Positions 18,813 through 45,068 of a stretch of DNA of 64,000 nucleotides are shown piece by piece. The translations under genes were made by a program, and so were the position numbers. This stretch comes from Methanobrevibacter sp. GTDB lineage: Archaea; Methanobacteriota; Methanobacteria; Methanobacteriales; Methanobacteriaceae. The notes beneath the pieces are model-generated. The model did not search any database, was not told where the DNA came from, and saw only the letters and a program-made list of their open reading frames with translations. Where the stretch lies: positions 7,221 through 71,220 of the forward strand of contig NZ_JAFUHT010000034.1 of assembly GCF_017468685.1 (NCBI RefSeq). The letters run 5' to 3'. Within the stretch, counting starts at the first letter, position 1; every line of letters begins with the position of its first letter.

Positions 18813-19128
18813 TTTTAAACCTAAAATATTAATTGTTAATATTTTTAGTTTAAAATATTAAATACTTTTCTAACTTTTGTTAATTTTCAAAAATAGTTTT
18901 GGGTTGTTAGGTAGATAATAATTTATATTAACTACCTAACGACTTGTGTTTACAAGCTTTAGAGAAATGAATTTTAAAATTTGGCTGTTTTTATCTATCT
19001 CTCTGGCTACGAGGTAGCCAATATTATTATATGGTATTAGCTATATATAAATGTTATTATATTTTATAAAAATTCAAGTATACTTTATCAAAAAGTTTTA
19101 TATTGTTGGATTGATAAAGTTTAATTGA

Positions 19129-20175: not shown

Positions 20176-20176
20176 A

Positions 20177-27856: not shown

Positions 27857-28609
27857 ATGAAAGACGTAGAAAATTATATCAGAGAAATTTTAAAAACACG
27901 TAAACTTCATTTTACTTTAATTGATCCTGACGAACAGACACCTGAAGAAGCTTTAAAAATTGCTACTCAAGCTATTGAAGGTGGAACTGATGGTATTATG
28001 ATTGGAGGATCCACTGTCAATGGTGATGATGTTGACAATACCTGTAAAATATTGTCTGAAAACATTGCAGTGCCTATTATCATTTTCCCTGGAAACACCA
28101 GCAGCGTAAGCAAATATGCTGACGGAATATTCTATATGAGTTATGTTAACTCTACAAACCCATATTGGATTAACGGTGCACAGGCTCTTGCAGCTCCTGC
28201 TGTTAAGGCATCTGGAATTGAAATTTTATCAATGGCTTATATGGTTGCAGAACCTGGTGGAACTGTCGGTTGGGTTGGAGACGCTAAACTGGTACCTAGA
28301 AATAAGCCGAAAATACCTGCAATTTATGCAATGTCTGCTGAAATGTTCGGTATGAAATTCTTCTACCTTGAAGCAGGTTCCGGTGCGGATAAACCTATTC
28401 CTCCTGAAATGGTTGCATATTCCAAAAAAGCAACTGAAAATATGAGTATTGTTGTGGGTGGAGGAATCCGTGATGGCAAGGCTGCTTATATGGCTGCAAA
28501 AGCAGGTGGGGACATCATTGTAACCGGTACTGTCGTTGAAGAAGTAGATGATGTTCAAGCTAAAATTCAAGAATTAACTGGAGCTATCCTTAAGGCTTCA
28601 AAAGAGTAG
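27857..28609 (+). CDS. Geranylgeranylglyceryl phosphate synthase
   Basis: FTLIDPD, IGGS, FPGN, YLEAGSGA, VGGGIR, VTGT. Confidence 0.93.
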   Translation: MKDVENYIREILKTRKLHFTLIDPDEQTPEEALKIATQAIEGGTDGIMIGGSTVNGDDVDNTCKILSENIAVPIIIFPGNTSSVSKYADGIFYMSYVNSTNPYWINGAQALAAPAVKASGIEILSMAYMVAEPGGTVGWVGDAKLVPRNKPKIPAIYAMSAEMFGMKFFYLEAGSGADKPIPPEMVAYSKKATENMSIVVGGGIRDGKAAYMAAKAGGDIIVTGTVVEEVDDVQAKIQELTGAILKASKE

Positions 28610-28635
28610 TTTTTTCTGCTCTTAAACTTTTTTTT

Positions 28636-28656
28636 ATTACTTTTCAAATGCTCTCT
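28636..28656 (+). promoter_or_regulatory. 21-bp repair-gene box upstream of nurA
   Basis: ATTACTTTTCAAATGCTCTCT, 7 nt before TTTAAATA. Confidence 0.75.
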
Positions 28657-28733
28657 CGTTTGATTTAAATATTATCAAGACTAATATATGATTAGCATTT
28701 ATTATTGCCCACTAGGGCATTTTTTAAATTAAT

Positions 28734-29825
28734 GTGTTTAATAAGAGTGATATTATGTTAAATTCATTATATGAAAAAGCCATCGCTAAAAGAGGATTTA
28801 TCCGTGAAGTCGCTCCTGAAAAGGATATTGATTCGCAACTGGAGTATAAATGGTTTGAAAGACCAATTGGTGAAAGTACGAAGGAATTTTCCATTGCAGC
28901 CGGAGACGGTAGTTTCAACAAAAAGAAATTTCTGACAACCAACTTCTGTGCGGTAGGTGCAGAATCAATCATATATGATGGTGAAATTAAAAAGATAGAT
29001 GATTCAGATATTTTCGATATATCACATGTAACTTTTCTTGATGAACTTTTGAGTACATATATGGCAATATATGAACTGAAATGTGGCCTGAGGGCTATTA
29101 AGGAATACGGTGCTGACTATTACATGTTTGACGGTTCAATTTTAGGAGACTTGCAGAACGCTTTTCCAAGAGGGGCAAAGCTGCCTATTAAACTTAAGGA
29201 TAATTTGGATGATTCTCTTCTTGCGGAATTTGAAAGGAGATTGAGCGTTCGAAAATATGGGCTGGTTTTTCCAGAACTCAGGGATTCATTGAAACTGATG
29301 GAACTTCCAAAAGAGGATGTAAACAAAACCGAAGAGTATAATCTTCATTTGGCTGCTGTTGAGAAAATTATTCTATTAAAGGAGATTTTGCAGTTTAGAA
29401 AAAGAATAATTTCAATTTCCAAAACCTCTTCGGACAATGAGCTGTTCAATTGGAATATTCCGGACATTGCATTTCTTGACAAGTTCACCAAAAAGCAGGG
29501 AATGACAATTATAAAGTATAGGAATGTTCACGAGAATGCTCCTTTTCAATATTTCAATGATTTCTTTAAAAGCTTGACTTTTACCGTATTTTATGTACGT
29601 CTGCAGGATAATAAGAATGTGCTGAAAGTGGAATTGCCGTATAAGGCAACAAAAGAAGAGGTATTTGAGATTATACGTAAGATTAATGTGCTGTCTGTTC
29701 AGGGTTATCCTTATCTTTTAAACAAGGCCCATAATGATGTGGTGATAACCGGCGGGAACATGAAGGAACTGATGAAAATAGCTAAGATTTACGAGACAAC
29801 AAACAGGGAAGTGATGTCATGGTAG
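28734..29825 (+). CDS. nurA: NurA 5'-3' nuclease
   Basis: AGDGS, MFDGS, SISKTS, GYPYLLNKAHNDV; coupled to herA. Confidence 0.92.
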   Translation: MFNKSDIMLNSLYEKAIAKRGFIREVAPEKDIDSQLEYKWFERPIGESTKEFSIAAGDGSFNKKKFLTTNFCAVGAESIIYDGEIKKIDDSDIFDISHVTFLDELLSTYMAIYELKCGLRAIKEYGADYYMFDGSILGDLQNAFPRGAKLPIKLKDNLDDSLLAEFERRLSVRKYGLVFPELRDSLKLMELPKEDVNKTEEYNLHLAAVEKIILLKEILQFRKRIISISKTSSDNELFNWNIPDIAFLDKFTKKQGMTIIKYRNVHENAPFQYFNDFFKSLTFTVFYVRLQDNKNVLKVELPYKATKEEVFEIIRKINVLSVQGYPYLLNKAHNDVVITGGNMKELMKIAKIYETTNREVMSW

Positions 29826-31321
29826 TGGGAATCTGTGTAGGAGAAACTAATTTAAATGAAGTAACATTTATTTCTGATAAAATGCCACAAGTTGGTCAAT
29901 ATGTCACAATAGAATATGACGGTAAAAAAGTATTGGGTATGGTTGAAAATCTGGTGAGAGGAAACGATGCGTTGAATGTTGACATCAACGACTTCAAGGC
30001 AATCCAGAAAATCTCAAAAATAGGTGTTGAGGACAACTACATCCGTGGTAAAGTCAAAATCCTTGGAGATGTAAACGATAACCTTAAACTGCCAAGAACA
30101 CCTGTGCTTCCAGGAACAGAAATTCAGCATGCTGATGCAGAAATCCTAAATGAAATATTTAAGGTTACAAATCCTATCAAACTGGGAACATTGGTTAATC
30201 AAAGCGATGTGGATGTAAATGTTGATGCAAATCCGATTCTTTCAAGGCATTTGGCAATTCTTGCAATGACTGGAGCAGGTAAATCAAACACAGTATCAGT
30301 ACTGATAGATCAGCTGCTCGGATATAATGTGCCTGTATTCGTATTTGACATGCATGGCGAGTACAAGGGAGCGGAATTTCCAAATGGTGACGTGAATGTC
30401 ATCAAACCGAAAATAAATCCAACATACATGTCATTTCTGGAGATAAAAAAGCTTGTAAACATTCCAACAAATGCATATCTTCAGGAACGCTACTTCAGAA
30501 AAGCATTCAAGGAAGCTAAAAAGAAAGTAGAGGATGGAACAGCCCATGAAAAAAATTTCTTGCAGTTAATGTATGATATTTTAGAGTTTGAATCAATGGA
30601 AGAAGGCTCAGATAAAAGAATCGTTGATGTAATGAACAAGATTGACGATTCAATGGACAAGTACTCCAATCTCTTCGACCAGTACACCGGAAATATTTTA
30701 ACCAGCATTAAAAAAGCTCATGTCAATGTATTGGATTTAAGTCAAGTTGATGAGTCAGTTGCAAGTGTGCTTGTAAGTCATATACTTAGAAATTCTTTGA
30801 AACGTTCCAAAAATGCAGCTCATAGTGGAAACAAAGATGAATTGCTTGACAACTCAGTATTCTATATTTTAGAGGAAGCACACATTCTAGCTCCAAACAA
30901 ACGTGACAGCGATTCTAAACGATGGATTCAAAGAGTTGCAAGAGAAGGCCGTAAATTCGGTCTTGGTTTATGCTTGGTAAGCCAATCTCCAAAAACTGTA
31001 GACCATGATGCCCTCTCTCAGATGAACAATATGATAATATTAAGACTTGTCGAGCCTGAAGACCAGAGACACGTACAGTCAGCAAGTGAAAGCCTGTCAC
31101 AGGACCTGGTAAATCAATTGCCTTCACTCAACGTCGGTGAAGCCATTGTTTTGGGTTTGATGAGCAAAGTTCCTACTCTTGTTAAAATAGACAAGTTTAA
31201 GGGTCGTACTCACGGTGATGACATGGATATTGTATCTTATTTTAAAGATTCAATAAAAAGGGAAGCCGAAGAGATTGAAAGGCAAGAAGATGAACTTATG
31301 GATATGGGATATGAGTATTAA
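29819..31321 (+). CDS. herA: HerA bipolar helicase/ATPase
   Basis: N-terminal HAS barrel, RHLAILAMTGAGKS, FDMHGEY, EEAH, AREGRKFG, SQSP. Confidence 0.93.
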   Translation: MVVGICVGETNLNEVTFISDKMPQVGQYVTIEYDGKKVLGMVENLVRGNDALNVDINDFKAIQKISKIGVEDNYIRGKVKILGDVNDNLKLPRTPVLPGTEIQHADAEILNEIFKVTNPIKLGTLVNQSDVDVNVDANPILSRHLAILAMTGAGKSNTVSVLIDQLLGYNVPVFVFDMHGEYKGAEFPNGDVNVIKPKINPTYMSFLEIKKLVNIPTNAYLQERYFRKAFKEAKKKVEDGTAHEKNFLQLMYDILEFESMEEGSDKRIVDVMNKIDDSMDKYSNLFDQYTGNILTSIKKAHVNVLDLSQVDESVASVLVSHILRNSLKRSKNAAHSGNKDELLDNSVFYILEEAHILAPNKRDSDSKRWIQRVAREGRKFGLGLCLVSQSPKTVDHDALSQMNNMIILRLVEPEDQRHVQSASESLSQDLVNQLPSLNVGEAIVLGLMSKVPTLVKIDKFKGRTHGDDMDIVSYFKDSIKREAEEIERQEDELMDMGYEY

Positions 31322-31489
31322 TATTCCATTTTATTTTTTTTAAAAAATTGTTTTAAACTTATAAAATTGATATAACTCTTTTAAATCGCTTTAATTTATA
31401 ACTGAACGATTTATATATCTTAAAATTTAATATCATACTGCTTAAGCAAAGATATTGGTCAATATCAAAAAATTGGTATATGGTTCATT

Positions 31490-32351
31490 ATGCAGGTTAG
31501 CACATATCATGCCGCTGACAAAGCTAACAAGTTCATATACAAACGTTTGGGCATTAAATTTCATAGATATCTTTACCAAGAAGGAAATGAAATTGAATTC
31601 ATTGATACTGAGATTCCGGAAACTGGCCAACTACGGGACATGACTGTCAAGGTCGATGATGATCATATTCGCATTACAGAATTCATGTCTGCTGCTTTAA
31701 ATGAAGATAAACTGTCTGCCATGTATGATTATCATGAATCCATTCGATGTGATGTAAACTATCAAGGTTATGGTGTTAAAAGTGGAGTGTTTAGTTTCGC
31801 TAATCCTAATCATGGAAAACGTCAAATTATTGTGGATGATAATATCATTTTCCAACCAGAAATCATATTTACAAAAAATAGGGATGGATGGGAAGTTTTA
31901 AATAGATTAATCTACAAAGTGATTACACAAGAAGAATTGTCTGATGATGAAGCAATTGATTTGTTGATGTTGCCAGATATGGAGATAGAATTACCAAAAA
32001 AAGTACTTATGAGGGTTATTTGCTTTTTAATTAGTAATTCTATCATCTCAGATTTAAATTTCAAAAATGACTTGAAAGACTGTTTAATTCAAGTGCTCAA
32101 AAGATTTTTTGAAAAAAAAAGAATTGTCAGAAATGGTGGAAATGTTAAAACTTGAATCTGAAAATCCAGAAAGAATGCGTATTATTGAAAAATATGGTCA
32201 AGGATATGATTTGATATATTTTGATGGAAAATATGATGCTAAAATTGAAATTGCTAGAAATGGTATTCTTAAAGGTTTAGATTTGAATATTATTTCTGCT
32301 TTAACTGGTTTTTCTATTGAATATCTCAAAGAAATTAAAAAAGACATTTAA
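31490..32351 (+). pseudogene. Rpn/YhgA-like PD-(D/E)XK nuclease gene, frameshifted at an A9 tract
   Basis: RD.TV..DD..I.ITEFMS core; C-terminus KIEIARN...GLDLNIISALTGFSIE typical of Rpn tails; removing one A at 32112-32120 fuses the two ORFs. Confidence 0.6.
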
Positions 32352-32610
32352 TTCATATATGTATTTAAATTGGATTTTGATTTGATTACTTGCAGTATGA
32401 TAAAACGCTTTAAGGATTTGAGGAGATAAATCTTTTAGGCGCATATTTTGCAGTTAAAATTATAATTTATGGAATGTTTAAAAGCTCCTCATTTTAAACT
32501 TTCTTTTTTTAATTTTGATTTAAGTTTGAATCAAAGTGATTTAGAAATTAAATTACATATGCTAATTTTTTAAAATTTTATTAGATTTTTACAAGTTAAA
32601 ATCAATATTG

Positions 32611-32631
32611 ATTACTTTTCAAATGCTCTCT
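32611..32631 (+). promoter_or_regulatory. 21-bp repair-gene box upstream of mre11
   Basis: ATTACTTTTCAAATGCTCTCT, 9 nt before ATTAAATA. Confidence 0.75.
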
Positions 32632-32732
32632 TGCAAAACTATTAAATATAAATTAGTATAAATTATTACACATTAAATGCTTGTTAAAGTGTTTAAATTG
32701 GTTATAATACAAAAAATAAAAAAGGTAATATA

Positions 32733-33974
32733 ATGAAATTTGCACATTTAGCAGACACTCATTTAGGTTACCGTCAATATGGATTATTTGAACGGGAAAA
32801 AGACTTTTATGAAGTGTTTGATAAGGTTATAGATAAAATAATTGAAGAAAAAGTAGACTTTGTAGTACATAGTGGTGACTTATTTGAAACCGCAAGACCT
32901 TCACCTATGGCACTTTTGACTTTCCAGAAGGGGTTATTGAAACTTAAAGGTGCAGGAATTCCAATGTATGCAATTGCAGGAAACCATGATGTTGTAATGC
33001 GTAAGGGATCCATCCCGCCACATGTAATCTTTAAAAAAATGGGACTGAAAGTGATAAGTACAATCAATCCTACCTACATTCATGGGGACATATTTATCGC
33101 AGGTCTTCCATATTATCCTGCATCCCATGGAAAAGCATTAAAAAGCAAACTGGCAGAGCTTTCCGAAAAGGCAACCCACCATGAAAAGTCAATACTTGTC
33201 CTTCACCAGGGAATTGACCAATACTTCAATTTAAACTATGAACTGGAACTTGGTGAAATACCTGACAATTTTGATTACTATGCTTTAGGCCATATCCATA
33301 AGTATGTAAATGACACTTACGGTAAAGGCAGATTGGTGTATCCTGGTTCAGGTGAAATCTGGAAAACATCCGAACTTCCGGATTATAAAAAGAACGGTAA
33401 GGGATTTGTGGTTGTTGATTTCGATGGCACAAAACCAATTGTTAAAAGGGTAACTGTTGATATTCCCCGTGAATTCATAGAAAGGAATTTAAACTATAAT
33501 AATTTGGAAACAGATATTGCAGCAATTAAAGATACTATAAAAGGTTTCGATAAAAAACCGATATTGAAATTAACAATTAAGGATGTTGAATCAGATACCA
33601 GCAGAGTATATGAAATCATCAAAGAGGAATTGGGCGATTTGTCTTTAATGATCAGGCCTACTTTTATAATGGCTGGTGAGGAGATTGAACCAATTGATGT
33701 TGAATCTAAAAAATTAGGTCCAGAACAGCTCATAGAAAAATCTCTAGAAGGATATGGCAATAGTGAAGTCACTACACTTGCTATCGATTTATATCATCTG
33801 CTTTCAAAAGACAAGCTCGATGAATCACAGGAGATTATAAACCAATACTTTGATGCACATTACAGTAATGTAGTTGAAGATGTTGAATTTAAAACAGAGG
33901 AAGTTAAAAAACCACAACCTCCGGAGGAAAAAGAGGATGTACAAGTAACATTTAGCAAGGAGGTTTCAGAATGA
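32733..33974 (+). CDS. mre11: Mre11 nuclease
   Basis: ADTHLG, SGDLF, AGNHD, LGHIH phosphoesterase motifs. Confidence 0.95.
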   Translation: MKFAHLADTHLGYRQYGLFEREKDFYEVFDKVIDKIIEEKVDFVVHSGDLFETARPSPMALLTFQKGLLKLKGAGIPMYAIAGNHDVVMRKGSIPPHVIFKKMGLKVISTINPTYIHGDIFIAGLPYYPASHGKALKSKLAELSEKATHHEKSILVLHQGIDQYFNLNYELELGEIPDNFDYYALGHIHKYVNDTYGKGRLVYPGSGEIWKTSELPDYKKNGKGFVVVDFDGTKPIVKRVTVDIPREFIERNLNYNNLETDIAAIKDTIKGFDKKPILKLTIKDVESDTSRVYEIIKEELGDLSLMIRPTFIMAGEEIEPIDVESKKLGPEQLIEKSLEGYGNSEVTTLAIDLYHLLSKDKLDESQEIINQYFDAHYSNVVEDVEFKTEEVKKPQPPEEKEDVQVTFSKEVSE

Positions 33975-36717
33975 TTTTCACTAGGTTAAAGTTAAATAAT
34001 TTCAAATCACATGAACACACAGTCATATCATTTGATAAGGGAATAAGTGTTATTGTTGGTGAGAATGGTGCTGGAAAATCAACAATACTCGAAGCAATCA
34101 GCTTTGCTTTATTCAAACAGCATACTGGTAAAAAAATTGATGATTTAGTTAGAAACAATGCCAATTCAATGTCTGTGGAGTTGGAATTCACTTCCAACAA
34201 CAGGGATTATAAAATAATCCGTGTGAAAAAATCCAGTTTAAAATCATCTTTATTTAAAAGAACATCTTCAGAAGGAGGATATGTCCATGTTTGTACAGGT
34301 GACCGGGAAGTGGCTAATGAAATCCGTCAAATATTGGATATCGATTCTGACTTGTTCTTGAATGCAATTTATATTAGGCAAGGTGAAATCGCAGAATTGG
34401 TAGACAAAACTCCTTCCGAGAAAAAACAATTGATCGGTAAACTATTGGGAATCGATTCATTAGAGAAAGCCTGGAAGAGTTTACTTCCTTTCATCACAGA
34501 TTATGAATCTCAACGATCAGAACTTAGAGGCAAACTGTTTAACTCTGCTGAATTGATGGAAAGTTATAAGCACAAAAAGGCCGAATTGGAAGAGTTAAAG
34601 CAAAGAGGTCATGAATTGGAGGAACAGATTACTGAAGTCGATTCACTAATTAAAGAAATTTCTGAAAGTAAACGTAACATGGAACGGGAAAAAGAAATCT
34701 ATGAAACTCAACTTAACAATTTAGAAATGGAGAAAAAAACATTTGCTAAATTGGAAGAAGACAAACACAGAGTTCAGGAAGGTTTGGATCAAATCCGTGA
34801 AGCTGAAGAAAAAATTGAAAGGCTTGAAAAATACGTTTCCAAATTGGATGTTTATCTTGACTTTGAAAAATCTGTCAACAGCATTCAAAGATTAAAACAG
34901 GAAGAACAGGATATATTTGACAAATTAGATTCCATTTCTGAGCAAAAAGAATTACTTTTAAATAAAAAAGAGGGTTATAATAAATATTTATCTTCAGATG
35001 AAGAAATTAACAAATTAAACGATAAAAAGAATAATTTTGAAAAAGAATTGGCAACAATGGCTAAACTTGAAAAGGATAAAAAAGATTTGTTAAAAAACAT
35101 TGAAGATGAAAGGAATGATATTGAAAGTTTCTTCTCCAAATCTAAAGATAAATTGGATGATTATGGTCTTGACCAGGAAAAATTGGGTAAAATCGATGAT
35201 TTCAATCATCTTGAAAAATCAACTGAGGAGTTTAGAGATGAAACTTCCACAAAGATTGATGATTTAACAAAAGAAATCGTTGCCAAAAACGAAGACATTG
35301 TTGTTTATAAACAGAATATCAAGGCATGTGAAAAACCTTTAGTTGACCTGGAAGGCATTGACAATAAGTGTCCTGTTTGCCAGTCAGACATCAGCTCCTA
35401 TAAGAAAAAGGAATTAACCAAGCATTACAATAGTGAAATTAAGGAAAATCAAAAATTAATTTCAGAAAATGAAGAAAATGTCCGTTTGCTTACTAAAAAC
35501 AAGAATAGCTTTGAGGAAAAATTGGATAAACTCACAGAGTTGTCTAAAGATATCATTGAATATAAACACAAATTCGAACATTTGCAAAACGAGTTAATCC
35601 AGTTAAATAAGATGGATGAGGAATTGGAAGCAAAAGAATATATCAGCAATAAACTTGGTGAGTTGATATTGGTCATTGCCAATAAAAAAGAAGAACGTGA
35701 ATCATTTAAACAGGACCATGATTCATATATTCAATCTAAAGGTGCTTTGGATGTTTTAGGTAGTGAAACTGAAGCCCAATATAAACTAAAACAGGTTCAA
35801 AATGAAATTGACAATCATGTTGCCAATATCAAATTGGCCATTGAACAGGATCCTCATTTAAGCGGTGATATCAGCACTGCTGAGCTTAAAAATCGTATGG
35901 ATGATTTGAAACAGAAAAATGAGGAGTTCAACCAACTTAAGGGATTCATTCAAAATAAAAATTCATTGCTGACTCAATTGGATTCAATTAAAGAGGATAT
36001 TGGTGTTTCAATTAATCAAAAAGACATTATTGAAAATAAATTAAATGCTTCTTTATATGATGCAGATAAATATGAGCAAATTTTATACAATTTTGAACGT
36101 TATGAGAGAAGAAAAACCAATTTCAATGAGGAACTTTTCACTATTAAAGGACAGGCAAAAGAATCAATTGCTGCACTTCAGGATGTGACTGAAAAAATCA
36201 AAACCGCCAATAAGTTCAAACAGGAATATGATAATGTAGATGATTATATCAGTCTTTTAAAACATATTCGTGAAATTTATAGTCGTGGAGGAATTCAAAA
36301 AGAATTAAGAAAGATTTCACGTCCTACAATTCAAAAACACACAAAAGAGTTCTTTAAAGAGTTTAATTTCAACTACTCTGATTTAACTATTGATGATGAT
36401 TATGAAGTGACTGTTTATGGTCCTGAGGAGAATCATCAATCAGTATGGTTAGTGGTGGTGAAAAAATAGCTATTGCTCTTGCTTTAAGATTGGGTATTAC
36501 TCAGGCTTTAGCCAATGGTGAATTGGATACTATCTTATTAGATGAGCCTACAATTCATTTGGATGCTTCAAGAAAACATGAACTGATCAATCTGTTAAAG
36601 GAAATGTCTTCATTGCCTCAAATGATTATTGTAACTCATGAAGCGCAACTGGAAAATGCTGCAGATAATCTGATTAAGGTAGAAAAAGAAAATGGTATTT
36701 CAAAAGTAATAATGTAA
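33971..36717 (+). CDS. rad50: Rad50 ATPase, split by an apparent single-base deletion near 36427-36428
   Basis: GENGAGKS, YIRQGEI Q-loop, CPVC zinc hook, coiled coils; SGGE, LLDEPT and VTH motifs lie in the downstream frame. Confidence 0.93.
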
Positions 36718-36740
36718 TCACATTATTACATTATTTTTTT

Positions 36741-37136
36741 TTACATTGTTTCCGGTGCATCTTTAATTGAGTCGATTATGCAATTAGCATTCCACCCTAC
36801 AATGGTTGCCGCATTTTCTTCAAGGACTTCTGGTACTTCTTCAACACCAATAGGTCTTACAAGTACAATCGGAATGTCATATTTTTTACTTGCATTTAAC
36901 AAATCATCAAACAGCTCCTTATTGTCGCTGTAAAGACCGGCTAACATTATTATCCTGTCAACTTTTTGGTAAAACTCTTCACCTGCACTAGCATAAGCTC
37001 CAGACATGGATTCTTTCCATAGAAAATCAGTTTTAGAATATAATTTTTCGGTAAACTGGCCGTATTCCTTATTTTTATCAAAACCGTTAGTGATTATTAA
37101 ATTATAAATTTTGTCATCTCTTTCGTCTTCAAACAT
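36741..37136 (-). CDS. MTH538-like TIR/flavodoxin-fold protein
   Basis: IMLAGLY, PIVLVRPIG.EEVP..L, IVGWNANCI pattern matches MTH538/DUF1863. Confidence 0.75.
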   Translation of the reverse strand: MFEDERDDKIYNLIITNGFDKNKEYGQFTEKLYSKTDFLWKESMSGAYASAGEEFYQKVDRIIMLAGLYSDNKELFDDLLNASKKYDIPIVLVRPIGVEEVPEVLEENAATIVGWNANCIIDSIKDAPETM

Positions 37137-37234
37137 TTAACCACCTTTGCTTTAAATATAACTCTCCTATTATAAAAATATTTATTAATTTAAAAATTTA
37201 AGATTATAATAGAATTATTTAGGAATTATTTTTT

Positions 37235-38518
37235 ATGAAAGCGGCTGTAATTGGATTAGGGGTAGAAGGTAAAAAGGCGGTAAACTCTCTTTTAAATCAT
37301 GGTTGGGAAGTTTATGCTACTGATTTGAATATTAATGTTGATTTATCCGGTTTGAATTTGCCAATATTGGATATGAATATGATTGAGGAAAAACAAACAG
37401 TTTCAATAGTTGGGGAAAAGATAACTGTTGATTTGGGATTTACCAATTCATATGCTATTGAAAGTTGTGATGCAATAGCTTTTAGCCCTAGTATGTATGG
37501 CGGGTCATTTGCTAATCGTTTATTGGAAGATGGGGATTTGTTAAGTGATGTTTTAGTAAAGCATAAGGATCTTTTCACTATTGGAATTACAGGAACTAAC
37601 GGTAAAACAACCACTGTTCACATGCTGAAAAGTATTTTAGAAAATGCCGGCAAAAAAGTTTTGGTTGGTGGAAACGGTGGTGGAGGATTTTCAGGTTATT
37701 ATGATTTGATTCTTGAAGCTGAAGAGGGAGATTATGATATCCTGCTTGTTGAAGTCTGTGACATGACACTGGATTTTGCCAATTACTGTTTTGATTTTGA
37801 TATGGTCGGTTTGACAAATATTGGCAATGACCATATGGATGTTCACAAGACCATTGCAAATTATAAAAACTCTCTTGTTAGATTTTTTGCTGATAAAACA
37901 ATATTCACTACATTTAATCAGGATTTTAACTCTGATTTTAAGGAATCTGCCAGTCAAAGCATTTCTTATTTTGCCTATCAGGATAAGCTTCAATTGGTTG
38001 GTGAGTTCAATTTGCTTAATGCAGGACTTGCAACTGCCATTGCCCGTGAGCTTAAAATCCCAAAAGATGTAATCAGATCCACACTTGAGAATTTTAAGGC
38101 CGTTCAAGGCAGATTAGATGTTTATAAAATCAATGATGCTGATGTGTATGTTGGAAAAACGGATAATTCTGATGCATTAGCTTCAGTTTTAGCTGAAAAA
38201 GACTTTTATGCGTTATTCATAGGTACTCCAAGACTTAATGAAATACACAGGCTGGATATTCTTGATGTTGCAGTTAAATATAATCCTGAAGTAATTGTTC
38301 TCTTCCCTGGTCTTGATGACACTTTAGATTTGGCAATTTACAGACTTAATTCATTAGGTTATATGGGCAATATCATAACCGTTAACACTCTTGACCAAAT
38401 TATTGAATTGGTTGCCGAGTATTCTCATGAAGAGGCTATTTTAATCGGTGGAAATGGTCAGGATGTTATTATAGATATTCAGGATAGAATTAAGGAAATA
38501 TCTGAAAAACTATTGTAA
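37235..38518 (+). CDS. Mur ligase family protein (MurD-like, likely pseudomurein biosynthesis)
   Basis: GLGVEG, GITGTNGKTT, GGN, TNIGNDHMD, N...A, GRL. Confidence 0.85.
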   Translation: MKAAVIGLGVEGKKAVNSLLNHGWEVYATDLNINVDLSGLNLPILDMNMIEEKQTVSIVGEKITVDLGFTNSYAIESCDAIAFSPSMYGGSFANRLLEDGDLLSDVLVKHKDLFTIGITGTNGKTTTVHMLKSILENAGKKVLVGGNGGGGFSGYYDLILEAEEGDYDILLVEVCDMTLDFANYCFDFDMVGLTNIGNDHMDVHKTIANYKNSLVRFFADKTIFTTFNQDFNSDFKESASQSISYFAYQDKLQLVGEFNLLNAGLATAIARELKIPKDVIRSTLENFKAVQGRLDVYKINDADVYVGKTDNSDALASVLAEKDFYALFIGTPRLNEIHRLDILDVAVKYNPEVIVLFPGLDDTLDLAIYRLNSLGYMGNIITVNTLDQIIELVAEYSHEEAILIGGNGQDVIIDIQDRIKEISEKLL

Positions 38519-38581
38519 ATCAATAAGCTTTTTATAATAGATTTGATATAATTAGATATGTATATTTTTTAGGTGTATTAA

Positions 38582-39769
38582 ATGAGTAACGGTTGGAGAA
38601 AAATTTCTATTGCAATATTAGTAGCATTAATTGTTTTATGCGCATTCCTTGCAGTTTTTACTTCTGCAAGTAATAATTATACTGCAGAATCCGTAGTCAA
38701 TCAATACAATCTTCCTATTGGCCAATCAATGTTTGAAAATCAATCTATTGTAGGTACAACAGATCCTGTAGAAGTTCCTTTAATAAGCAATTTCGGATTT
38801 TTAACACATCAACTTCAGGCATTTGATTTACAGGGCATGTTGATGGCATTTACAACAGGAGTTGTTCCATTCGACTTTTCTACTGTTGCAGGTGAAGGTA
38901 TTGATTCATATGGAAATGTAGTTGATGTTGAAGGTCCTGGATTTTTAACCTATGCTGGAGATAAACTGGTTGTAAAAGAGCCTGATAATTATGTATGGGC
39001 ATATAGTGCTCCATATAAATGGCTTGAAAAAACAGAATCTGGTGTAGATGTTTATGAAGATGGTAAAAAGATTAGATCTGTTCCTGTTGATGAAATTAGG
39101 GATTTGGAATATAGTAATGATTATTATAATGCTTCCACTATAGCCAGTTGGTATAATTATGATGCTGCAGTAGGTTCAACATTTACCTTGGAAAAAGGAA
39201 TGGTTGGCTTTTCTGATGGTAGAAATAATATCTCATCAAGTGATGTGCCTAAAATATTTGGTCAAGAAATGGTAGATTATGCATCTGAATATCCGACAGG
39301 TTCTCCAATTTTATTATATTCCGGAAATTACACTGAAGAATCAGGTGAAACTTATGGTACATCTTTAGGTTCACACCCTGAATATGGTGACTCAATTAGG
39401 GAAGTCAATGCAAGACAGTTTGTTGATGCATGGAATGGAACTGTTATCCCGCCTAATTCCACATCCAGTGGTAAGGATTATGTATACTTTGAGTCTGCAA
39501 GTGATGCTTCAGCTCCTGGTGGAAGTGCTGCACACGGAGTATGTCCATCTGCAAGGGCTTTAAGAGCAGCAGTAACTTCTGAAGGATTTGATTTGCCTGT
39601 GGGTATGACCTGGGATGAAGATGCAGTTTTATTCGGTTTCAATCCTGCTCAGGATATCACTGTATATAATAATCATGATTATCCTGTAAAAATTAAAATG
39701 TGGACTGAAGGCTCAGGTACTGGAATGGGTATTTATGCCAAAGTCGTAAGATATATTCCTAATGACTGA
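38582..39769 (+). CDS. Membrane-anchored exported protein with possible VanW-like C-terminus
   Basis: N-terminal TM; GVCPSARAL...DITVYNNHDYPVKI resembles the VanW G.CQ...DL.F.N....I.I pattern. Confidence 0.6.
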   Translation: MSNGWRKISIAILVALIVLCAFLAVFTSASNNYTAESVVNQYNLPIGQSMFENQSIVGTTDPVEVPLISNFGFLTHQLQAFDLQGMLMAFTTGVVPFDFSTVAGEGIDSYGNVVDVEGPGFLTYAGDKLVVKEPDNYVWAYSAPYKWLEKTESGVDVYEDGKKIRSVPVDEIRDLEYSNDYYNASTIASWYNYDAAVGSTFTLEKGMVGFSDGRNNISSSDVPKIFGQEMVDYASEYPTGSPILLYSGNYTEESGETYGTSLGSHPEYGDSIREVNARQFVDAWNGTVIPPNSTSSGKDYVYFESASDASAPGGSAAHGVCPSARALRAAVTSEGFDLPVGMTWDEDAVLFGFNPAQDITVYNNHDYPVKIKMWTEGSGTGMGIYAKVVRYIPND

Positions 39770-39792
39770 ATATATCTTTAAATTCTTTTTTT

Positions 39793-40446
39793 ATGTCTAT
39801 TTCTACAATCATTACTGCTGCTGGTAAGAATTCTCGTATGAGAAATGATCAGATTTCACGCGGTATCGAGTTGACAAATAAACTTATTTTACCTTTTAAC
39901 AATAAGACCGTTATAGAGACCACAATTGATAATGCATTATCCTTGAATATTGATGAATGTATTGTAGTACTTGGACATTATGCCAGTGAAATAAAGGAAG
40001 CTATTTTTGATAATTATAAAGATGAAGTAAAGTTTGTAGAAAACAATCCTGTTGATGTAGGTTTATCAACATCACTTTACAATGGTCTTTCAAATATTTC
40101 TTCTGATTTTGCTTTGTGCATTACCGCCGACCAGCCGACAGTCTCAGCCGAAACATTTAAGAAAATGATTGAAGTAAGCCAATCCTCAAAAAATCCATAC
40201 AAAACAATATCAATTTTGAGAAGAAGAAAAACCGGACTGTTGGATACTGCTGAAGGGTTGGGAATGCCTTTTGTAGCTCCAAGAAAAAACCTGATGAAAT
40301 ATCTTGAAAATGAAAATGATAATTTGAATCCAATACTTAGAAAGATATTTGATGATGGATATATATTTTATGGAATAAAAGAAAAAAATGAAAAAGAGTT
40401 ATTAAATATTAATCATTATGATGATTATCTAACTCTTTTAGATTGA
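39793..40446 (+). CDS. MobA/MocA-like nucleotidyltransferase
   Basis: ITAAGKNSRM, K.IL.F, ADQP, GMP, NINHYDDY. Confidence 0.8.
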   Translation: MSISTIITAAGKNSRMRNDQISRGIELTNKLILPFNNKTVIETTIDNALSLNIDECIVVLGHYASEIKEAIFDNYKDEVKFVENNPVDVGLSTSLYNGLSNISSDFALCITADQPTVSAETFKKMIEVSQSSKNPYKTISILRRRKTGLLDTAEGLGMPFVAPRKNLMKYLENENDNLNPILRKIFDDGYIFYGIKEKNEKELLNINHYDDYLTLLD

Positions 40447-41124
40447 TTCAAGTCCTTCAATAACTTCTTCGATTTTTGCCTTGCTGATGCCTATTGCCAT
40501 CTCTTCATCCTTGATGTCAGCCGCTTTTCTGGAACCGTCACAACCTAATGTGAAATTAATTCCATCTTCAAGATAAGGTTTTGAAAATGCATCGCCACAT
40601 AATGATTGAATACCTGCAAATAATCCGCAGGCTTTTTCACCGGATTTATAGACTAGGCTTTGTGCAAGTTTCATTCCGCCGACAGGTTTTGTAATAATTT
40701 GAATAACATCAGCTTCAAAATCAGCTTCATCTAAAGGAGCATAAATTATTGCCCATGATCTCTCTTCAATAATTGATAAATCTGCTGTTAATTTTTTTGC
40801 AGTTTCAATATCTTTAAATCTACCTAATGAGAAGTATTTTTCACCATTTGCTAGTTTTTCAGGCATATCTCTAAGTCCAATAGCTCCAGCTCCCCCTAAA
40901 CACATTTGCTGGTCAATTGTTGAGTAGAAAGTGTCTCCTAATGAAGCTTTTCTAACCATTTCACAATGCCTGATTTTTTCACCGATTAGCTCAATGCCTT
41001 CTGGAAGGTCATCTTCAGTTTTAACTAATTTCATTGCAACCGGTTTAGCATCAAGAGTGATTTTACTTTCGATTACTTCACAATATTTTTTGTTTTTCTC
41101 TAAATTATTAGTCAATACAATCAC
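40438..41124 (-). CDS. DUF169 family protein
   Basis: PVAMKL, RHCEMV, CLGG..AIG, CGD, LGCDGSR. Confidence 0.8.
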   Translation of the reverse strand: MIVLTNNLEKNKKYCEVIESKITLDAKPVAMKLVKTEDDLPEGIELIGEKIRHCEMVRKASLGDTFYSTIDQQMCLGGAGAIGLRDMPEKLANGEKYFSLGRFKDIETAKKLTADLSIIEERSWAIIYAPLDEADFEADVIQIITKPVGGMKLAQSLVYKSGEKACGLFAGIQSLCGDAFSKPYLEDGINFTLGCDGSRKAADIKDEEMAIGISKAKIEEVIEGLESI

Positions 41125-41142
41125 CTTTGATAATATGTTTAG

Positions 41143-42375
41143 TTAAGGAATTTTAATATCTTTTGTTTTAACACTGTTATTTTTACAGAATGTTTTAAAA
41201 TCACATGCATTACAGGTTCTTTCATCCGAATCTGCTTTCCAGGCCTCCTGAATTTTACAGCCCTTAATCTCTTTAATTAAGGAACTTTCAATATCAAAAA
41301 CAACATCATCAAATCTGTTAAGTGAATCATCGATTTGTTTATCGTCAATATTGATTATACGAATTGACCTTGCAATTTTAAACTCTTCACTTAACTCCGG
41401 TGCCTTATCATCTTCGTTCCAGTTCATAATCAACTCAACATCATTTGCATATTTACTGTAGTCAATAGCACTATCAGTTCTGTCCTGTGCAATCTCTTCC
41501 TGTATTAAAACCAAATCCTCTTTTGAAGGAACAAGCTCATTTAGATAAAATATTATTCCTGCAAATATAGGTTTTGCATCTTCCTGGCGGCTTCTAAGCC
41601 ATGAATATGTTAGGATTTGCTGTTTATGATTTTCCCATGGATTGGTAAATTTATTGATACTCTGTTCAGGAGGTCTTTTCATTCCTTTATAATCAATGAT
41701 GATTTCGTATTCATCCCCTTCGCTGAAATTTGTGATTTTTTTTCTGAATTCGGGATCTTTTTTGAGAAATTCTATAATCTTGTTATTGTAATTATCCAAA
41801 TTGCTTTGAGTAAGATTTTTATTAATTTTCATTGAGCTTAAAACGTCAACAACACCGTTAATGCCGTAATAGTTGGATCTGCTGACATTTTCATCATAAT
41901 TTGGCATTTTTCTAATTCCCTTAATCAGAAGTTCTGTTGAATCAATCAGAGGAAACAAATGAGGTCCCCAAACATTGATGGCTTTTTCTGCTCTTGCACT
42001 GGCTAATTTCTTATGGTCGTGTTCATTCAAATCCTCAATGGTCAAATCGCTATTCATCAGACTGTAAAACAAATCCTCATCATAAGGGTAAAGCCCGTCC
42101 ACCTGCAATCTAACGTCAATCATGTCCTCAATCGGGCGAATATCCTCTTTCCAGTTCCAAGGAAACTCCTTATTGTTTGTGTCCCATTCAAGATAAGCCT
42201 CTTCCAAAACGCCATGAATGAATTCTCCAAACCATCTTTGAACAGGTTTTGAAGGAGGAAGGGTTCCTTTGTTTTGATAGCGATATTGCAGATTGCATGT
42301 GAGAAATGACAGCAAATCTCCAGTTAGACTGTATTCTGGAATTATATATGATTTTGATCTTGAAGGTAATTTCAT
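41143..42375 (-). CDS. PD-(D/E)XK RecB-family nuclease with Fe-S staple (AddB/Cas4-like)
   Basis: N-terminal Cys (FLTCNLQY), FG...H, GVVD, IDYKG, QILTY, C-terminal CNACDFKTFC. Confidence 0.85.
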   Translation of the reverse strand: MKLPSRSKSYIIPEYSLTGDLLSFLTCNLQYRYQNKGTLPPSKPVQRWFGEFIHGVLEEAYLEWDTNNKEFPWNWKEDIRPIEDMIDVRLQVDGLYPYDEDLFYSLMNSDLTIEDLNEHDHKKLASARAEKAINVWGPHLFPLIDSTELLIKGIRKMPNYDENVSRSNYYGINGVVDVLSSMKINKNLTQSNLDNYNNKIIEFLKKDPEFRKKITNFSEGDEYEIIIDYKGMKRPPEQSINKFTNPWENHKQQILTYSWLRSRQEDAKPIFAGIIFYLNELVPSKEDLVLIQEEIAQDRTDSAIDYSKYANDVELIMNWNEDDKAPELSEEFKIARSIRIINIDDKQIDDSLNRFDDVVFDIESSLIKEIKGCKIQEAWKADSDERTCNACDFKTFCKNNSVKTKDIKIP

Positions 42376-42385
42376 AATTAATCTC

Positions 42386-44836
42386 CTATATTAAGTAAAT
42401 TTCATTAAATCCGTGATATTTTTCATCTCTGCTCCATCCGACGGCAACATTAGGTATGTTGAAGTGGTCTTTTTTACGTGTATATCCTTCAATCGCTGAA
42501 TTTAAACCCACCAACAGCAATACACTTTCTGCTCTTGAAAATGCAACAAAGTAAAGGCGTGTCAAATCATCGAACGAGCGGTCCTTTTCACTTCTTTCGG
42601 ATTCGCCCAATTCACTGTATCTGCGTATGGTGTCTTCGATTGTAATGTTTTTGGCAGATTTTTTCGGGAATCTTAAGTGCTGTGTTTTGATGTTGTTGTC
42701 TTTAAACTTCGAACCCACATCAACAATTACTAATGGAAATTCCAATCCTTTTGACTGGTGTATTGACAGAACATTCACCCTATCATCAGGCAGAGTTTCA
42801 AGTAATGATTCATCAATTTGTATTCCTCCGCTTGCAAGTGGAATGAAAATGTTCCAGATGGCTTCTAAAATTGATTCCTTTTCAGTTTCCTTATTGTAAA
42901 ATGAAATGTTTGAATAGTATTTGCTGAAAAAACCGGTCTGCGTAATGGATTTGGTAATCGCTTCAAGATAAACTATTCCTTCAACATCATCCTGCAGTTC
43001 ATCAATCCAAGTAACTAGTTTGTATGCAAGCTCCATTAGGCTGGCTTTTTGTGGCCATTTGTCACTTCCCCTTGGAATTCTATTCTGCCAGTAAAGGACA
43101 AATTGGCTTAAGTTAATCGGTTCGTGAGGTTCTGGGTTTAGTTTAATGTATTCTCGTGCACGGACTCTCCATCTGGTCATTGTAACCTTTGCAAGATTCG
43201 GAATAGTTTTGTCACTTAACTGAATTTTGCTTTCAGGGTCAATGCATTCAAGCATCAGTCCGCAGAATATTTCCACAATTTCAACCTTTTGAAGTTCAAT
43301 GCCTCTTGGATTAAAGACTTCAATTGGATTTCTTTGCTTTTTTAAATGTCTTCTCAAGTAATATAAAAGTGAATTGTTCCCAAACTGTTTTTCTTTAGGA
43401 GAATATGACAATATTGCAACATCTGATGCGGATCCGTATTCATCATCTAATTTGAGGGTCAGCCTTTCAATTCTTTTTCCCTGCTTTTCACGCTCCTGAT
43501 TAATCTGCTGTAATCTGGCAATATCAATGTTTCCATCAACTTGTCTGAAATAATCTTCATCAAGGACTTTTAAAACCTTAGGATGCACTTCTCCTTCATT
43601 GATAAGTTTTGAAAGTAAGTTGGACAATGATTTTGACAGCATCTCCACATTGTTTCTAAAAAGTCCCAGTATTGGCATTGTGTCCTTTTCAAAATCAGGG
43701 GCTATGATTTTTGGTTTGTTTTTAACCCTTGCAAGCTGATAATCGTCATCGAGTTCAACAAAATGATTGCAAAGGTTGATGATGTTGTCTGTTGAACGGT
43801 AATTAGTTTTAAGATTGATTTCTTCTACATCAATCCCCAATTTATCATTCGCACGTTGCTTATAATTGGTGAATAAATCTACAGTAGCTCCTCTGAAACG
43901 ATAAAGGGATTGGTCATCGTCTCCTACAACTGTAATATTTCCATTGTTTTTAAGTGCGGATTTTGCAATTGTGAAATAGATTTCTTCCTGAATCAAATTG
44001 GTGTCCTGATATTCATCGATTAAAACGATTTTAACATTATCTAAAAATAAATCCAGTCTGTTTTCTTTAAGCATTGTTAAAAATCTAGATTCAAGGATTG
44101 TAAAATCCATTGTATTTCTCTCGATTAGCAAATCCCTATATTTCTTAATGCAATTCAGTGTGATTTCCATTCCTTTATCATGAGTTATCTCTTTAGATAA
44201 CTCATCAATGTCTAGCTTGTCCTGATAGATTCTGTCTTTAATTACAAGTAAAATTTCACTCATTTTTGATGGTTCATCAAATTTTTCTCGGCCTGTCAGT
44301 GTTTTAAGGAATTCCTGAAGAGCTTCGTTTTTATATAATTCATTTTCACTTAGAATCTTTATCATTGCGGAGTTTGAAACAAATTTTTCTATGACAATTG
44401 GATTGTTGGTTCCGGGCTCTTTGTTTTGCCTCATTATTTCTTCTGCCAACTTATCGATTGTCCCAACTTTTATCTGGTTAAAGTCAATCCGATTTACATC
44501 TCCAATCAGGTCAAAATCATCTGTACTGTCAAATATATGATTTTTAATTTCATCTCCCCAGCCCAGGATTCTTGAATATAATTCTTCTGCCGCTTTTCTT
44601 GTAAAAGTTGTTGCAAAAATCTCTTCAGGATTGATGTCATCAACAAATATGAATTTTAATATTTTTAACACCATTACGGTAGTTTTTCCGCTTCCGGGAC
44701 CTGCAACCAAGAATAATGATTCATTTGCTTTGGCGATAATTGCTTTTTTTTGGTCTTCATTTGAAGAAATGTCTCTTTCAAGTACTTTCACTACAATCTC
44801 TTCAAATTCTTCTTGAGTAATCATTTTTTCCCTCAC
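42386..44836 (-). CDS. UvrD/PcrA superfamily 1 DNA helicase
   Basis: AGPGSGKT, TFTRKAA, DEYQD, GDDDQSLYRFRGA, NYRS, SIHQSKGLEF, YFVAFSRA. Confidence 0.92.
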   Translation of the reverse strand: MREKMITQEEFEEIVVKVLERDISSNEDQKKAIIAKANESLFLVAGPGSGKTTVMVLKILKFIFVDDINPEEIFATTFTRKAAEELYSRILGWGDEIKNHIFDSTDDFDLIGDVNRIDFNQIKVGTIDKLAEEIMRQNKEPGTNNPIVIEKFVSNSAMIKILSENELYKNEALQEFLKTLTGREKFDEPSKMSEILLVIKDRIYQDKLDIDELSKEITHDKGMEITLNCIKKYRDLLIERNTMDFTILESRFLTMLKENRLDLFLDNVKIVLIDEYQDTNLIQEEIYFTIAKSALKNNGNITVVGDDDQSLYRFRGATVDLFTNYKQRANDKLGIDVEEINLKTNYRSTDNIINLCNHFVELDDDYQLARVKNKPKIIAPDFEKDTMPILGLFRNNVEMLSKSLSNLLSKLINEGEVHPKVLKVLDEDYFRQVDGNIDIARLQQINQEREKQGKRIERLTLKLDDEYGSASDVAILSYSPKEKQFGNNSLLYYLRRHLKKQRNPIEVFNPRGIELQKVEIVEIFCGLMLECIDPESKIQLSDKTIPNLAKVTMTRWRVRAREYIKLNPEPHEPINLSQFVLYWQNRIPRGSDKWPQKASLMELAYKLVTWIDELQDDVEGIVYLEAITKSITQTGFFSKYYSNISFYNKETEKESILEAIWNIFIPLASGGIQIDESLLETLPDDRVNVLSIHQSKGLEFPLVIVDVGSKFKDNNIKTQHLRFPKKSAKNITIEDTIRRYSELGESERSEKDRSFDDLTRLYFVAFSRAESVLLLVGLNSAIEGYTRKKDHFNIPNVAVGWSRDEKYHGFNEIYLI

Positions 44837-44885
44837 TCATTAAATATGGTTTTATTTATTAAGTTAATACTTAATAAAGTAATTG

Positions 44886-44906
44886 AGAGAGCATTTGAAA
44901 AGTAAT
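44886..44906 (-). promoter_or_regulatory. 21-bp repair-gene box upstream of the UvrD helicase
   Basis: Exact reverse complement AGAGAGCATTTGAAAAGTAAT; 7 nt before minus-strand TTTATTAA. Confidence 0.75.
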
Positions 44907-45047
44907 TTTTAAATTTAAAGTTTATTTAGGTTAACCAAAAATTTATTTATAGTGATGTACAAATTATTTAACATGGGGTAATAATTTCTCCATAATATGC
45001 ATAAGTTAGGAGCAATTGCTTCTAACTTCAAATAATTTCTAATTCTT

Positions 45048-45068
45048 ATTACTTTTCAAATGCTCTCT
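45048..45068 (+). promoter_or_regulatory. 21-bp repair-gene box upstream of the Hrq helicase
   Basis: ATTACTTTTCAAATGCTCTCT, 7 nt before TTTAAATA. Confidence 0.75.

Follow-up and report, generated by a model that had tools for sequence, protein, structure and literature searches.

How do archaea outside the Sulfolobales coordinate their DNA-repair genes? To our knowledge archaea lack LexA, and we know of no DNA-repair regulon or operator for methanogens. The question is raised, and addressed, by a 64-kb stretch of a Methanobrevibacter genome (the window: positions 7221 to 71220 of contig C22, C22:7221-71220, in an assembly of 2.28 Mb with 33% G+C) in which a single 21-bp sequence, ATTACTTTTCAAATGCTCTCT, stands in front of four DNA-repair promoters. 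We find that this sequence, which we call the box, is a real, order-wide cis-regulatory element, similar in kind to the element that Orc1-2 reads in Sulfolobus and with a candidate regulator of its own. We are highly confident that it serves as the cis-regulatory mark of a regulon for genome maintenance that the order Methanobacteriales has conserved.

Four identical boxes face four repair operons

The window has four perfect copies of the 21-mer, at 28636 (plus strand), 32611 (plus), 44886-44906 (minus) and 45048 (plus). Dinucleotide shuffles give a chance expectation of 0.03 matches, and 0 of 100 shuffles reached four; there is no fifth copy in the window at up to three mismatches. Every copy is oriented toward its own operon, and its end lies 7, 9, 7 and 7 nucleotides (nt), for copies 1 to 4, from a TATA-like octamer. 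Copies 3 and 4 are divergent and 141 nt apart. The features are, in window coordinates and with position weight matrix (PWM) scores for the boxes:

28636 to 28656, plus strand: box copy 1, ATTACTTTTCAAATGCTCTCT, in the nurA-herA promoter; exact match; 38.1 bits
28664 to 28671, plus strand: TATA box TTTAAATA, 7 nt past box 1
28734 to 31321, plus strand: nurA-herA operon (nurA 28734-29825, herA 29819-31321; Pfam NurA 7.7e-32, HerA central domain 8.7e-45 plus HAS-barrel)
32611 to 32631, plus strand: box copy 2, in the mre11-rad50 promoter; exact match; 35.5 bits
32641 to 32648, plus strand: TATA-like box ATTAAATA, 9 nt past box 2
32733 to 36469, plus strand: mre11-rad50 operon (mre11 32733-33974, rad50 33971-36469; Metallophos 9.6e-17 in Mre11, SMC_N/AAA_15 and the Rad50 zinc hook in Rad50)
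40438 to 44836, minus strand: uvrD-nuclease-DUF169 operon (UvrD-family helicase 42386-44836, UvrD-helicase 1.1e-49; PD-(D/E)XK nuclease 41143-42375, PDDEXK_1 9.9e-11; DUF169 protein 40438-41124, DUF169 8e-57), with gaps of 11 and 19 nt between genes
44871 to 44878, minus strand: TATA-like box TTTATTAA, 7 nt past box 3
44886 to 44906, minus strand: box copy 3, in the uvrD-nuclease-DUF169 promoter; exact match; 38.1 bits
45048 to 45068, plus strand: box copy 4, in the promoter of the Hrq1/MrfA-type helicase; exact match; 36.7 bits
45076 to 45083, plus strand: TATA box TTTAAATA, 7 nt past box 4
45129 to 47987, plus strand: Hrq1/MrfA-type DEAD helicase (DEAD 1.4e-32, MZB zinc domain 1.5e-23, WHD_HRQ1 winged helix 6.5e-08, C-terminal TPR)

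Much of this had been claimed in a first-pass annotation made from the letters of the sequence. Exact searching and shuffling bear out its four gene-facing 21-bp copies, remeasurement gives the same distances to the TATA-like boxes, and domain matches confirm the genes that it named downstream (nurA-herA, mre11-rad50, UvrD with a nuclease, and an Hrq helicase).

Could such copies simply be the end of a mobile repeat, a miniature inverted-repeat transposable element (MITE) or an insertion sequence (IS) terminus, with no regulatory role? Some copies in the genome do lie inside IS200/605-type elements, and two of these, on contigs C13 and C77, have identical flanks. In the window, however, an alignment of 265 nt around each copy shows unrelated flanks and identity over exactly the 21-mer, so the box is not a repeat or MITE end; orientation and TATA spacing are fixed; and in other species and families the box precedes orthologous single-copy repair genes. 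The unrelated flanks and the orthologous promoter positions across species rule out a MITE or dispersed repeat, and we give the idea of a regulatorily silent repeat end next to no credence.

The box marks 34 promoters

Across the genome the box occurs 11 times exactly, 23 times at up to one mismatch and 34 times at up to three. The 34 sites score 26-38 bits in a PWM scan. The next candidate scores 15.8 bits, within the range of shuffled genomes, which give about 13 matches above 10 bits. Information content is high over positions 1-20 and at background level on either side, and the 20-bp consensus is asymmetric, not palindromic, with the conserved blocks TTACTT-n-TCA-nnn-GCTCTC.

Nearly all 34 sites are intergenic, each facing a gene start 35-230 nt downstream, and a TATA-like element stands behind almost all of them, with a box-to-TATA spacer of 6-9 nt in 26 of the 34 (mode 7). 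If these promoters follow the usual archaeal layout, the box would occupy about -58 to -38, on the immediate upstream side of the B-recognition element (BRE). The spacer, which holds the BRE position, is not conserved. Its composition is unusual as well. Consensus-TATA promoters genome-wide (n=199) have 50-56% A at -5 to -3 relative to TATA, as expected of a BRE, and 51-56% A at -4 and -3; at these last two positions the box promoters with a comparable TATA box (n=16) show 12-19% A, with T at 69%. The usual A-rich BRE is missing from box promoters, and the BRE that they do carry is T-rich and atypical. By analogy, a site directly upstream of such a BRE would fit an activator.

This geometry also bears on another possibility, in which the box extends the promoter itself and is recognised by an alternative basal factor, a second transcription factor B (TFB), as with TFB3/TFB2 in the Sulfolobales. 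Two full-length TFB (TFIIB) genes are present (C80:~1200-2232 and C61:~300-1348), and the box adjoins a BRE that is atypical. The 20 conserved base pairs, however, lie upstream of the 6-9 nt spacer in which TFB contacts DNA, and it is this spacer, the true BRE position, that varies in sequence. Spacing also varies by up to 3 nt, hard to fit with one rigid TFB-DNA contact, and neither TFB gene has a box. We consider a second TFB as the reader improbable.

Genes behind the box

Fifteen of the 34 promoters drive recombination, repair, replication or deoxynucleoside triphosphate (dNTP) synthesis operons, and about 10 belong to mobile elements (transposons and proviruses). The targets are:

Genome maintenance: RPA-RadA, NurA-HerA, Mre11-Rad50, Hjc, Hef and Hel308; UvrA, UvrD with its nuclease, and Hrq1/MrfA; an XPD/DinG-like helicase with an SseB-like protein; a MutS-domain-V/HhH protein with an ABC1 kinase; topoisomerase VI B and A (Top6B/A), MCM, and the small and large RFC subunits; and an ATP-cone protein interrupted by the contig end, with anaerobic ribonucleotide reductase NrdD as its full-length orthologue
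Mobile elements: five TnpB genes; two integrases, one of which has a further box right behind it; a SocA/Panacea-type protein; and an HTH_XRE plus IrrE/ImmA peptidase pair
Other: YdjM, DUF763, a radical-SAM protein with a DEAD helicase, PfkB, a 111-aa (amino acid) protein, a 119-aa protein, a 61-aa membrane protein and two unclear loci

Family searches with the small membrane protein and the 111-aa and 119-aa proteins found no family. The first-pass annotation had seen no full copy before a non-repair gene, which holds inside the window and fails elsewhere, where boxes precede TnpB, integrase, toxin-antitoxin-like and small membrane protein genes. It had also described the co-regulated set as end resection plus helicases. 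That part stands, and the set is wider, taking in RPA-RadA, Hjc, UvrA, TopoVI, MCM, RFC and NrdD.

Two loci deserve separate mention. At C80:40100-41858 (L017), the box is followed by genes for an HTH_XRE repressor-like protein, an IrrE/ImmA (M78) metallopeptidase and a 183-aa protein. The HTH_XRE and IrrE/ImmA pair resembles the ImmR/ImmA or DdrO/IrrE damage switches of bacteria; here it is strain-specific and probably part of a mobile element. As a master regulator of the boxes it is ruled out, being absent from 100 box loci in other species. The second locus, in the window at 19129-21694 (plus strand), encodes an RNase_H_2 / PolB-exonuclease-like (MrfB-like) protein and then a HEAT-repeat protein. 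A weak partial match to the box had been claimed upstream of it at 19081 (TACTTTATCAAA). That sequence needs an indel, lacks the GCTCTC half, abuts a TATA box with no spacer and is not among the genome-wide PWM matches above 10 bits. It is no box, and membership of the MrfB-like and HEAT-repeat pair in the regulon is not supported.

Conservation across the Methanobacteriales

An exact 18-mer of the box is found in many Methanobrevibacter species, in Methanobacterium and in other Methanobacteriaceae. A 19-mer at up to two mismatches occurs in 266 of 301 genomes of the class, with a reversed-pattern control almost empty; genomes of the window's genus have between 1 and 53 copies, and those of two thermophilic families 0 to 2. 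In other species we located 123 exact 18-mer sites, 100 of them with a downstream open reading frame (ORF), and at 80 of these 100 the ORF is orthologous to a target in the present genome. Top6B (9), Hjc (8), TnpB (8), RPA (6), the small membrane protein (6), integrase (5) and Hef (4) recur, and Top6A and RadA are found as second genes.

The first-pass annotation had suggested a motif scan of the whole genome and of its relatives. Run here, that scan yields the 34 promoter-proximal sites, order-wide conservation and orthologous repair genes as targets in other species, which together support the proposal of a shared, non-palindromic, BRE-adjacent site that couples DNA-repair operons.

A degenerate pattern finds only 2-4 sites per genome in the thermophilic families, one before RPA (in both families) and one beside cdc6-2, the gene of a second Orc1/Cdc6 protein. 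These two sites look like the ancestral core of a regulon that expanded in the Methanobacteriaceae. The outgroup genome has neither the box nor cdc6-2.

Variation between genera is found only at positions 7 and 11-13, and TTACTT, TCA and GCTCTC are fixed. Fixed blocks around variable internal positions point to contacts with a protein, not to guide-RNA pairing. This speaks against recognition of the box by an RNA-guided DNA-binding complex, for instance a TnpB-like repressor with a dead nuclease, an idea to which the exceptionally sharp conservation of 20 near-invariant base pairs within the genome and the five boxes before tnpB genes would lend themselves. Almost all 34 copies, moreover, are followed by a TATA element, none resembles a guide locus at a tnpB 3' end, and the element is kept in families with 2-4 boxes. 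We hold an RNA-guided reader to be very unlikely.

Likeness to origin recognition boxes

Upstream of orc1/cdc6-1 (C10:28391-29554, minus strand), the genome has at least seven origin recognition boxes (ORBs) of the form (A)TTACACTTGAAAT-nn-ACCTCT, in both orientations, at C10:29851-30998; from its sequence, this region looks like the replication origin (oriC). The promoter box is identical at 12 of 15 positions to TTACACTTGAAATGC of these same ORBs (shared pattern TTAC..TT.AAATGC), a level reached at 4e-5 of genome positions, the boxes themselves included. After its ORB-like part it continues into a CTCT tail, with a spacer one base shorter than in the ORB, and it differs from the genome's own ORB in its core at three consistent places, A5T, C6T and G9C. 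Both have a mini-ORB core and a C-rich tail (CTCT in the box, ACCTCT in the ORB), and a variant in one genus, g8, ends in CCCCT.

The differences are in arrangement. The boxes here are single copies at a fixed distance from TATA, not clusters around an AT-rich unwinding element, and the true ORB clusters (C10:29851-30998 and C41:20602-20780) lie apart from them. The box is ORB-like and is not an origin element, because its copies are single and TATA-linked and arrays occur only in genus g8.

The second cluster, at C41:20602-20780, consists of four direct ORB-like repeats (AAGTTACACTTGAAATGCATGTCT), three of them 54 nt apart and the fourth 45 nt further on. It is intergenic, upstream of a 140-aa gene and 4.4 kb from cdc6-2. 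Judged by its sequence, it could be a second origin or another Orc1-dependent promoter.

A second Orc1/Cdc6 gene beside a box

The literature regards Cdc6-2 of the Methanobacteriales as an initiator of replication or a loader of the helicase. In this genome a tblastn search with Cdc6-1 places it at C41:15116-16225 (L012:660-1769, minus strand); it has 369 aa and is 26% identical to Cdc6-1. A Pfam Cdc6_C scan finds one Orc1 gene only, cdc6-1, with no match in Cdc6-2, which scores 538 bits on an ORC1-type NCBIfam subfamily model. The missing Cdc6_C match fits the rapid winged-helix evolution of non-initiator Orc1 proteins (PMC9738581). The protein retains Walker A and a basic winged-helix wing, GKGVRGKSR. 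Its Walker B (residues ~150-153) reads LDD, versus LDE in Cdc6-1; in an alignment of 29 Methanobacteriales sequences, the first D is invariant and the second is present in at least 80%. With LDD, the protein may hydrolyse ATP slowly and behave like a switch.

A box lies 340 nt past the 3' end of cdc6-2, pointing toward it, and drives the gene of the 61-aa membrane protein (C41:14817-15002, = L012:361-546, plus strand), which is convergent to cdc6-2 in most genera examined, in three families. The same arrangement of box, TATA and a protein of 56-79 aa stands beside cdc6-2 at 22 of 28 other loci, in most genera examined and all three families, and in most loci it is 220-350 nt from the cdc6-2 end. 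Because archaeal orc1/cdc6 genes usually adjoin sites bound by their own products, this adjacency is suggestive. The small protein is a single-pass membrane protein showing the pattern DLRKK...SC...TM...AAxPNSNxP, and no other box target is as widely conserved; its 321 homologues are all named 'hypothetical protein' and come from Methanobrevibacter, and it has no Pfam family. We speculate that it could be a damage-induced effector such as a division inhibitor.

Genus g8 (G037, G038, G108; L168, L169, L171) has 4-6 tandem ATTACTTATCAATACCCCT units, about 22 nt apart, before the small membrane-protein gene. There are no dispersed boxes, the array beside cdc6-2 holds the only such sequences in those genomes, and the regulon seems to have been lost or rewired in this genus. 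The Cdc6-2 winged helix is most divergent in g8 (40-43% identity). It is least conserved in g8, g4 and g9 (40-47%), and the trend relative to box loss is weak and confounded by phylogeny.

Two box-rich genomes of the same genus seemed to lack cdc6-2. They do not stand as counter-examples: the neighbouring archease gene is absent as well, as is the 239-aa gene in G035, and the region is probably missing from, or masked in, the assembly. Several Methanobacteriaceae genomes also contain extra truncated Orc1/Cdc6-like genes, ~270-290 aa in length, that cover the AAA+ part alone and are 29-38% identical to Cdc6-2 (for example G071:C26:451428-452240 and G051:C1:1248056-1248823), some with in-frame stops.

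What may read the box

In monomeric Orc1, the winged helix contacts the ORB and the initiator-specific motif (ISM) contacts the G-track, and Orc1-2 needs both (PMC9738581). We propose that one sequence-specific protein binds the box in a comparable way, as a monomer with a two-part contact, a long asymmetric site in two blocks being of the kind that a monomeric Orc1 reads. The binder would most likely be of the Orc1/Cdc6 family, with Cdc6-2, the second paralogue, as the probable candidate. On this model the mini-ORB-like half, TTACTTTTCAAAT, would be contacted by its winged helix, and the CTCT half that faces the BRE by the ISM of its AAA+ part. Because a poor BRE adjoins a strong upstream site, the bound protein may help TFB and TATA-binding protein (TBP) to assemble on these promoters, which would then be activated jointly. 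The trigger would probably be DNA damage or replication stress, and proviruses and insertion sequences would have copied the box to time the expression of integrase and transposase.

A regulon signature that is also an upstream activating site read by an Orc1/Cdc6 paralogue is the best combined explanation that we can offer, and our confidence in it is evenly divided. That the reader belongs to the Orc1/Cdc6 family and is Cdc6-2, an assignment made from sequence, we put just short of even. In its fullest form the proposal makes Cdc6-2 a non-initiator Orc1: it would recognise a promoter box derived from ORBs and, as master activator, switch on an SOS-like genome-maintenance programme to which the small membrane protein belongs. 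This we advance tentatively, as a possibility.

Several points weigh against these proposals. The assignment of the regulator is circumstantial, and the ORB comparison was made after both sequences had been seen, that is, post hoc. The cdc6-2/box locus sits in a wider conserved block with archease, RtcB and the 239-aa protein gene. As cdc6-2 is near-universal in the order, its co-occurrence with the box discriminates only at the order boundary. No box-like site is present in the 1.4 kb upstream of cdc6-2 (best PWM score -0.1). Against PDB entries, Cdc6-2 scores 136 bits with the initiator-class 2qby_A versus 55 bits with the ORC2-class 1w5s. As to the mode and trigger of regulation, many TATA boxes of box promoters are near-consensus, which would also suit a repressor, and the MCM, RFC, TopoVI and NrdD targets suit a replication or cell-cycle programme equally well. 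Among public sequencing runs that hold window positions 28400-33400, only DNA gut metagenomes matched, and no RNA run.

The PDB scores give no support to orthology between Cdc6-2 and crenarchaeal Orc1-2. Since Cdc6-2 is no closer to Orc1-2 than to initiators, a regulatory role, if true, would probably have been recruited independently, as a second case in which an origin-binding protein became a damage-response regulator.

The same regulon could instead be read by a conventional transcription factor unrelated to Orc1/Cdc6, for example of the winged-helix or ribbon-helix-helix (RHH) type, with the ORB likeness and the cdc6-2 adjacency as coincidence or plain synteny. All evidence for the regulon applies equally to such a factor, and the post hoc nature of the ORB comparison, the broadly conserved cdc6-2 neighbourhood and the absence of box regulation at cdc6-2 itself are on its side. 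The box targets, however, include no conserved gene for a DNA-binding protein, the HTH_XRE-IrrE pair being strain-specific and missing from the 100 cross-species loci. A 20-bp asymmetric site in two blocks is also unusual for dimeric archaeal factors and matches the footprint of monomeric Orc1 (PMC9738581), and identity at 12/15 positions with the ORB of the same genome would arise by chance at a rate of ~4e-5 per position. A conventional factor is a serious possibility all the same, and a substantial minority of our confidence lies with it.

Boxes carried by mobile elements

In an integrated element at C24:9017-10247 (L009), a tyrosine integrase gene has one box in front of it and another immediately behind; several ORB-like sequences occur further along the contig (C24:14521-24376). 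Of the 20 viral contigs from IMG/VR with the exact 18-mer, 13 have the box next to an integrase gene (loci L198-L215). The retrieved parts of these 20 contigs contain no Orc1 homologue, so such viruses would depend on a factor of the host. An IS200/605-type element is present twice, at C13:390 and C77:10528, with the box inside it, upstream of tnpB, and with identical flanks. This transposon has incorporated a host promoter element.

In haloarchaea, a viral Orc1 controls integrase expression that is induced by mitomycin C damage (PMC10123103). By this analogy, the use of the box by mobile elements would speak in favour of DNA damage as the trigger.

Relation to known systems

The nearest relative in kind is the DNA-damage-responsive element (DDRE) of the Sulfolobales, an asymmetric promoter element that Orc1-2 binds through its ISM and winged helix (PMC6061795, PMC9738581; see also PMC12490963). 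Both are asymmetric elements of ~20 bp, the DDRE in damage-response promoters and the box in repair promoters; the box matches the Sulfolobus consensus AATAGTTTCRGWDTACTCWS at 14 of 20 positions ungapped, a level with a chance of 1e-3 per genome position; and the proposed reader of the box is an Orc1/Cdc6 paralogue, for which a second conserved Orc1/Cdc6 gene is present here. The systems differ in phylum (Methanobacteriota versus Thermoproteota) and in sequence, as the box lacks the literal ANTTTC hexamer and reads ACTTTTC, with C instead of A two bases before TTTC. They differ also in targets, with core recombination, repair and replication machinery for the box and ups/ced/tfb3 for the DDRE. 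Finally, Cdc6-2 is not demonstrably an orthologue of Orc1-2, and the cdc6-2 promoter, unlike that of Sulfolobus orc1-2, is without the element.

In gene content, the box regulon is a close functional parallel of the bacterial SOS regulon, extended by replication genes. RadA, RPA, UvrA, UvrD, a DinG-like helicase, YdjM, a junction resolvase and ribonucleotide reductase all have their parallels there, and in both systems prophage integrases and transposases have hitch-hiked on the signal. The box differs in not being palindromic and in lying 6-9 nt upstream of TATA, not over the core promoter. It implies no LexA-type repressor, and its logic is likely to be activation.

Upstream activating sites that adjoin the BRE and TATA box are familiar from archaea, among them those of Ptr2 (Methanocaldococcus), TFB-RF1 (Pyrococcus) and GvpE (haloarchaea). 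The box resembles them in standing directly upstream of a non-consensus BRE, in one orientation and at a near-fixed distance; it differs in sequence, in the presumed family of its protein, and in its dozens of promoters and order-wide conservation. The SNJ2 pleolipovirus offers a further likeness, in that an Orc1/Cdc6-family protein links damage to the integrase (PMC10123103) and proviruses here have put the host box beside theirs. SNJ2, however, encodes its own Orc1, unlike what was found in the retrieved viral contigs. In a literature search that also covered the motif written out in letters, neither the box element nor a Methanobacteriales repair regulon came up.

Implications

The box defines a clean regulon of ~15 core operons in the dominant methanogens of human and ruminant guts. 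RPA and the small membrane protein would form its ancestral core across the order, and its candidate regulator can be expressed directly. Biochemistry of Cdc6-1 and Cdc6-2 exists for Methanothermobacter, as does a genetic system, so the regulator hypothesis can be tested now. As a signature, the box can be used to predict repair genes of unknown function, with DUF763, DUF169, the SseB-like protein, the 111-aa protein and the small membrane protein as first candidates. The element would also explain how the proviruses and IS200/605 elements of Methanobrevibacter time their integrases and transposases. If the proposed reader is correct, this would suggest that archaea in general make up for the missing LexA with ORB-like boxes read by Orc1 paralogues.

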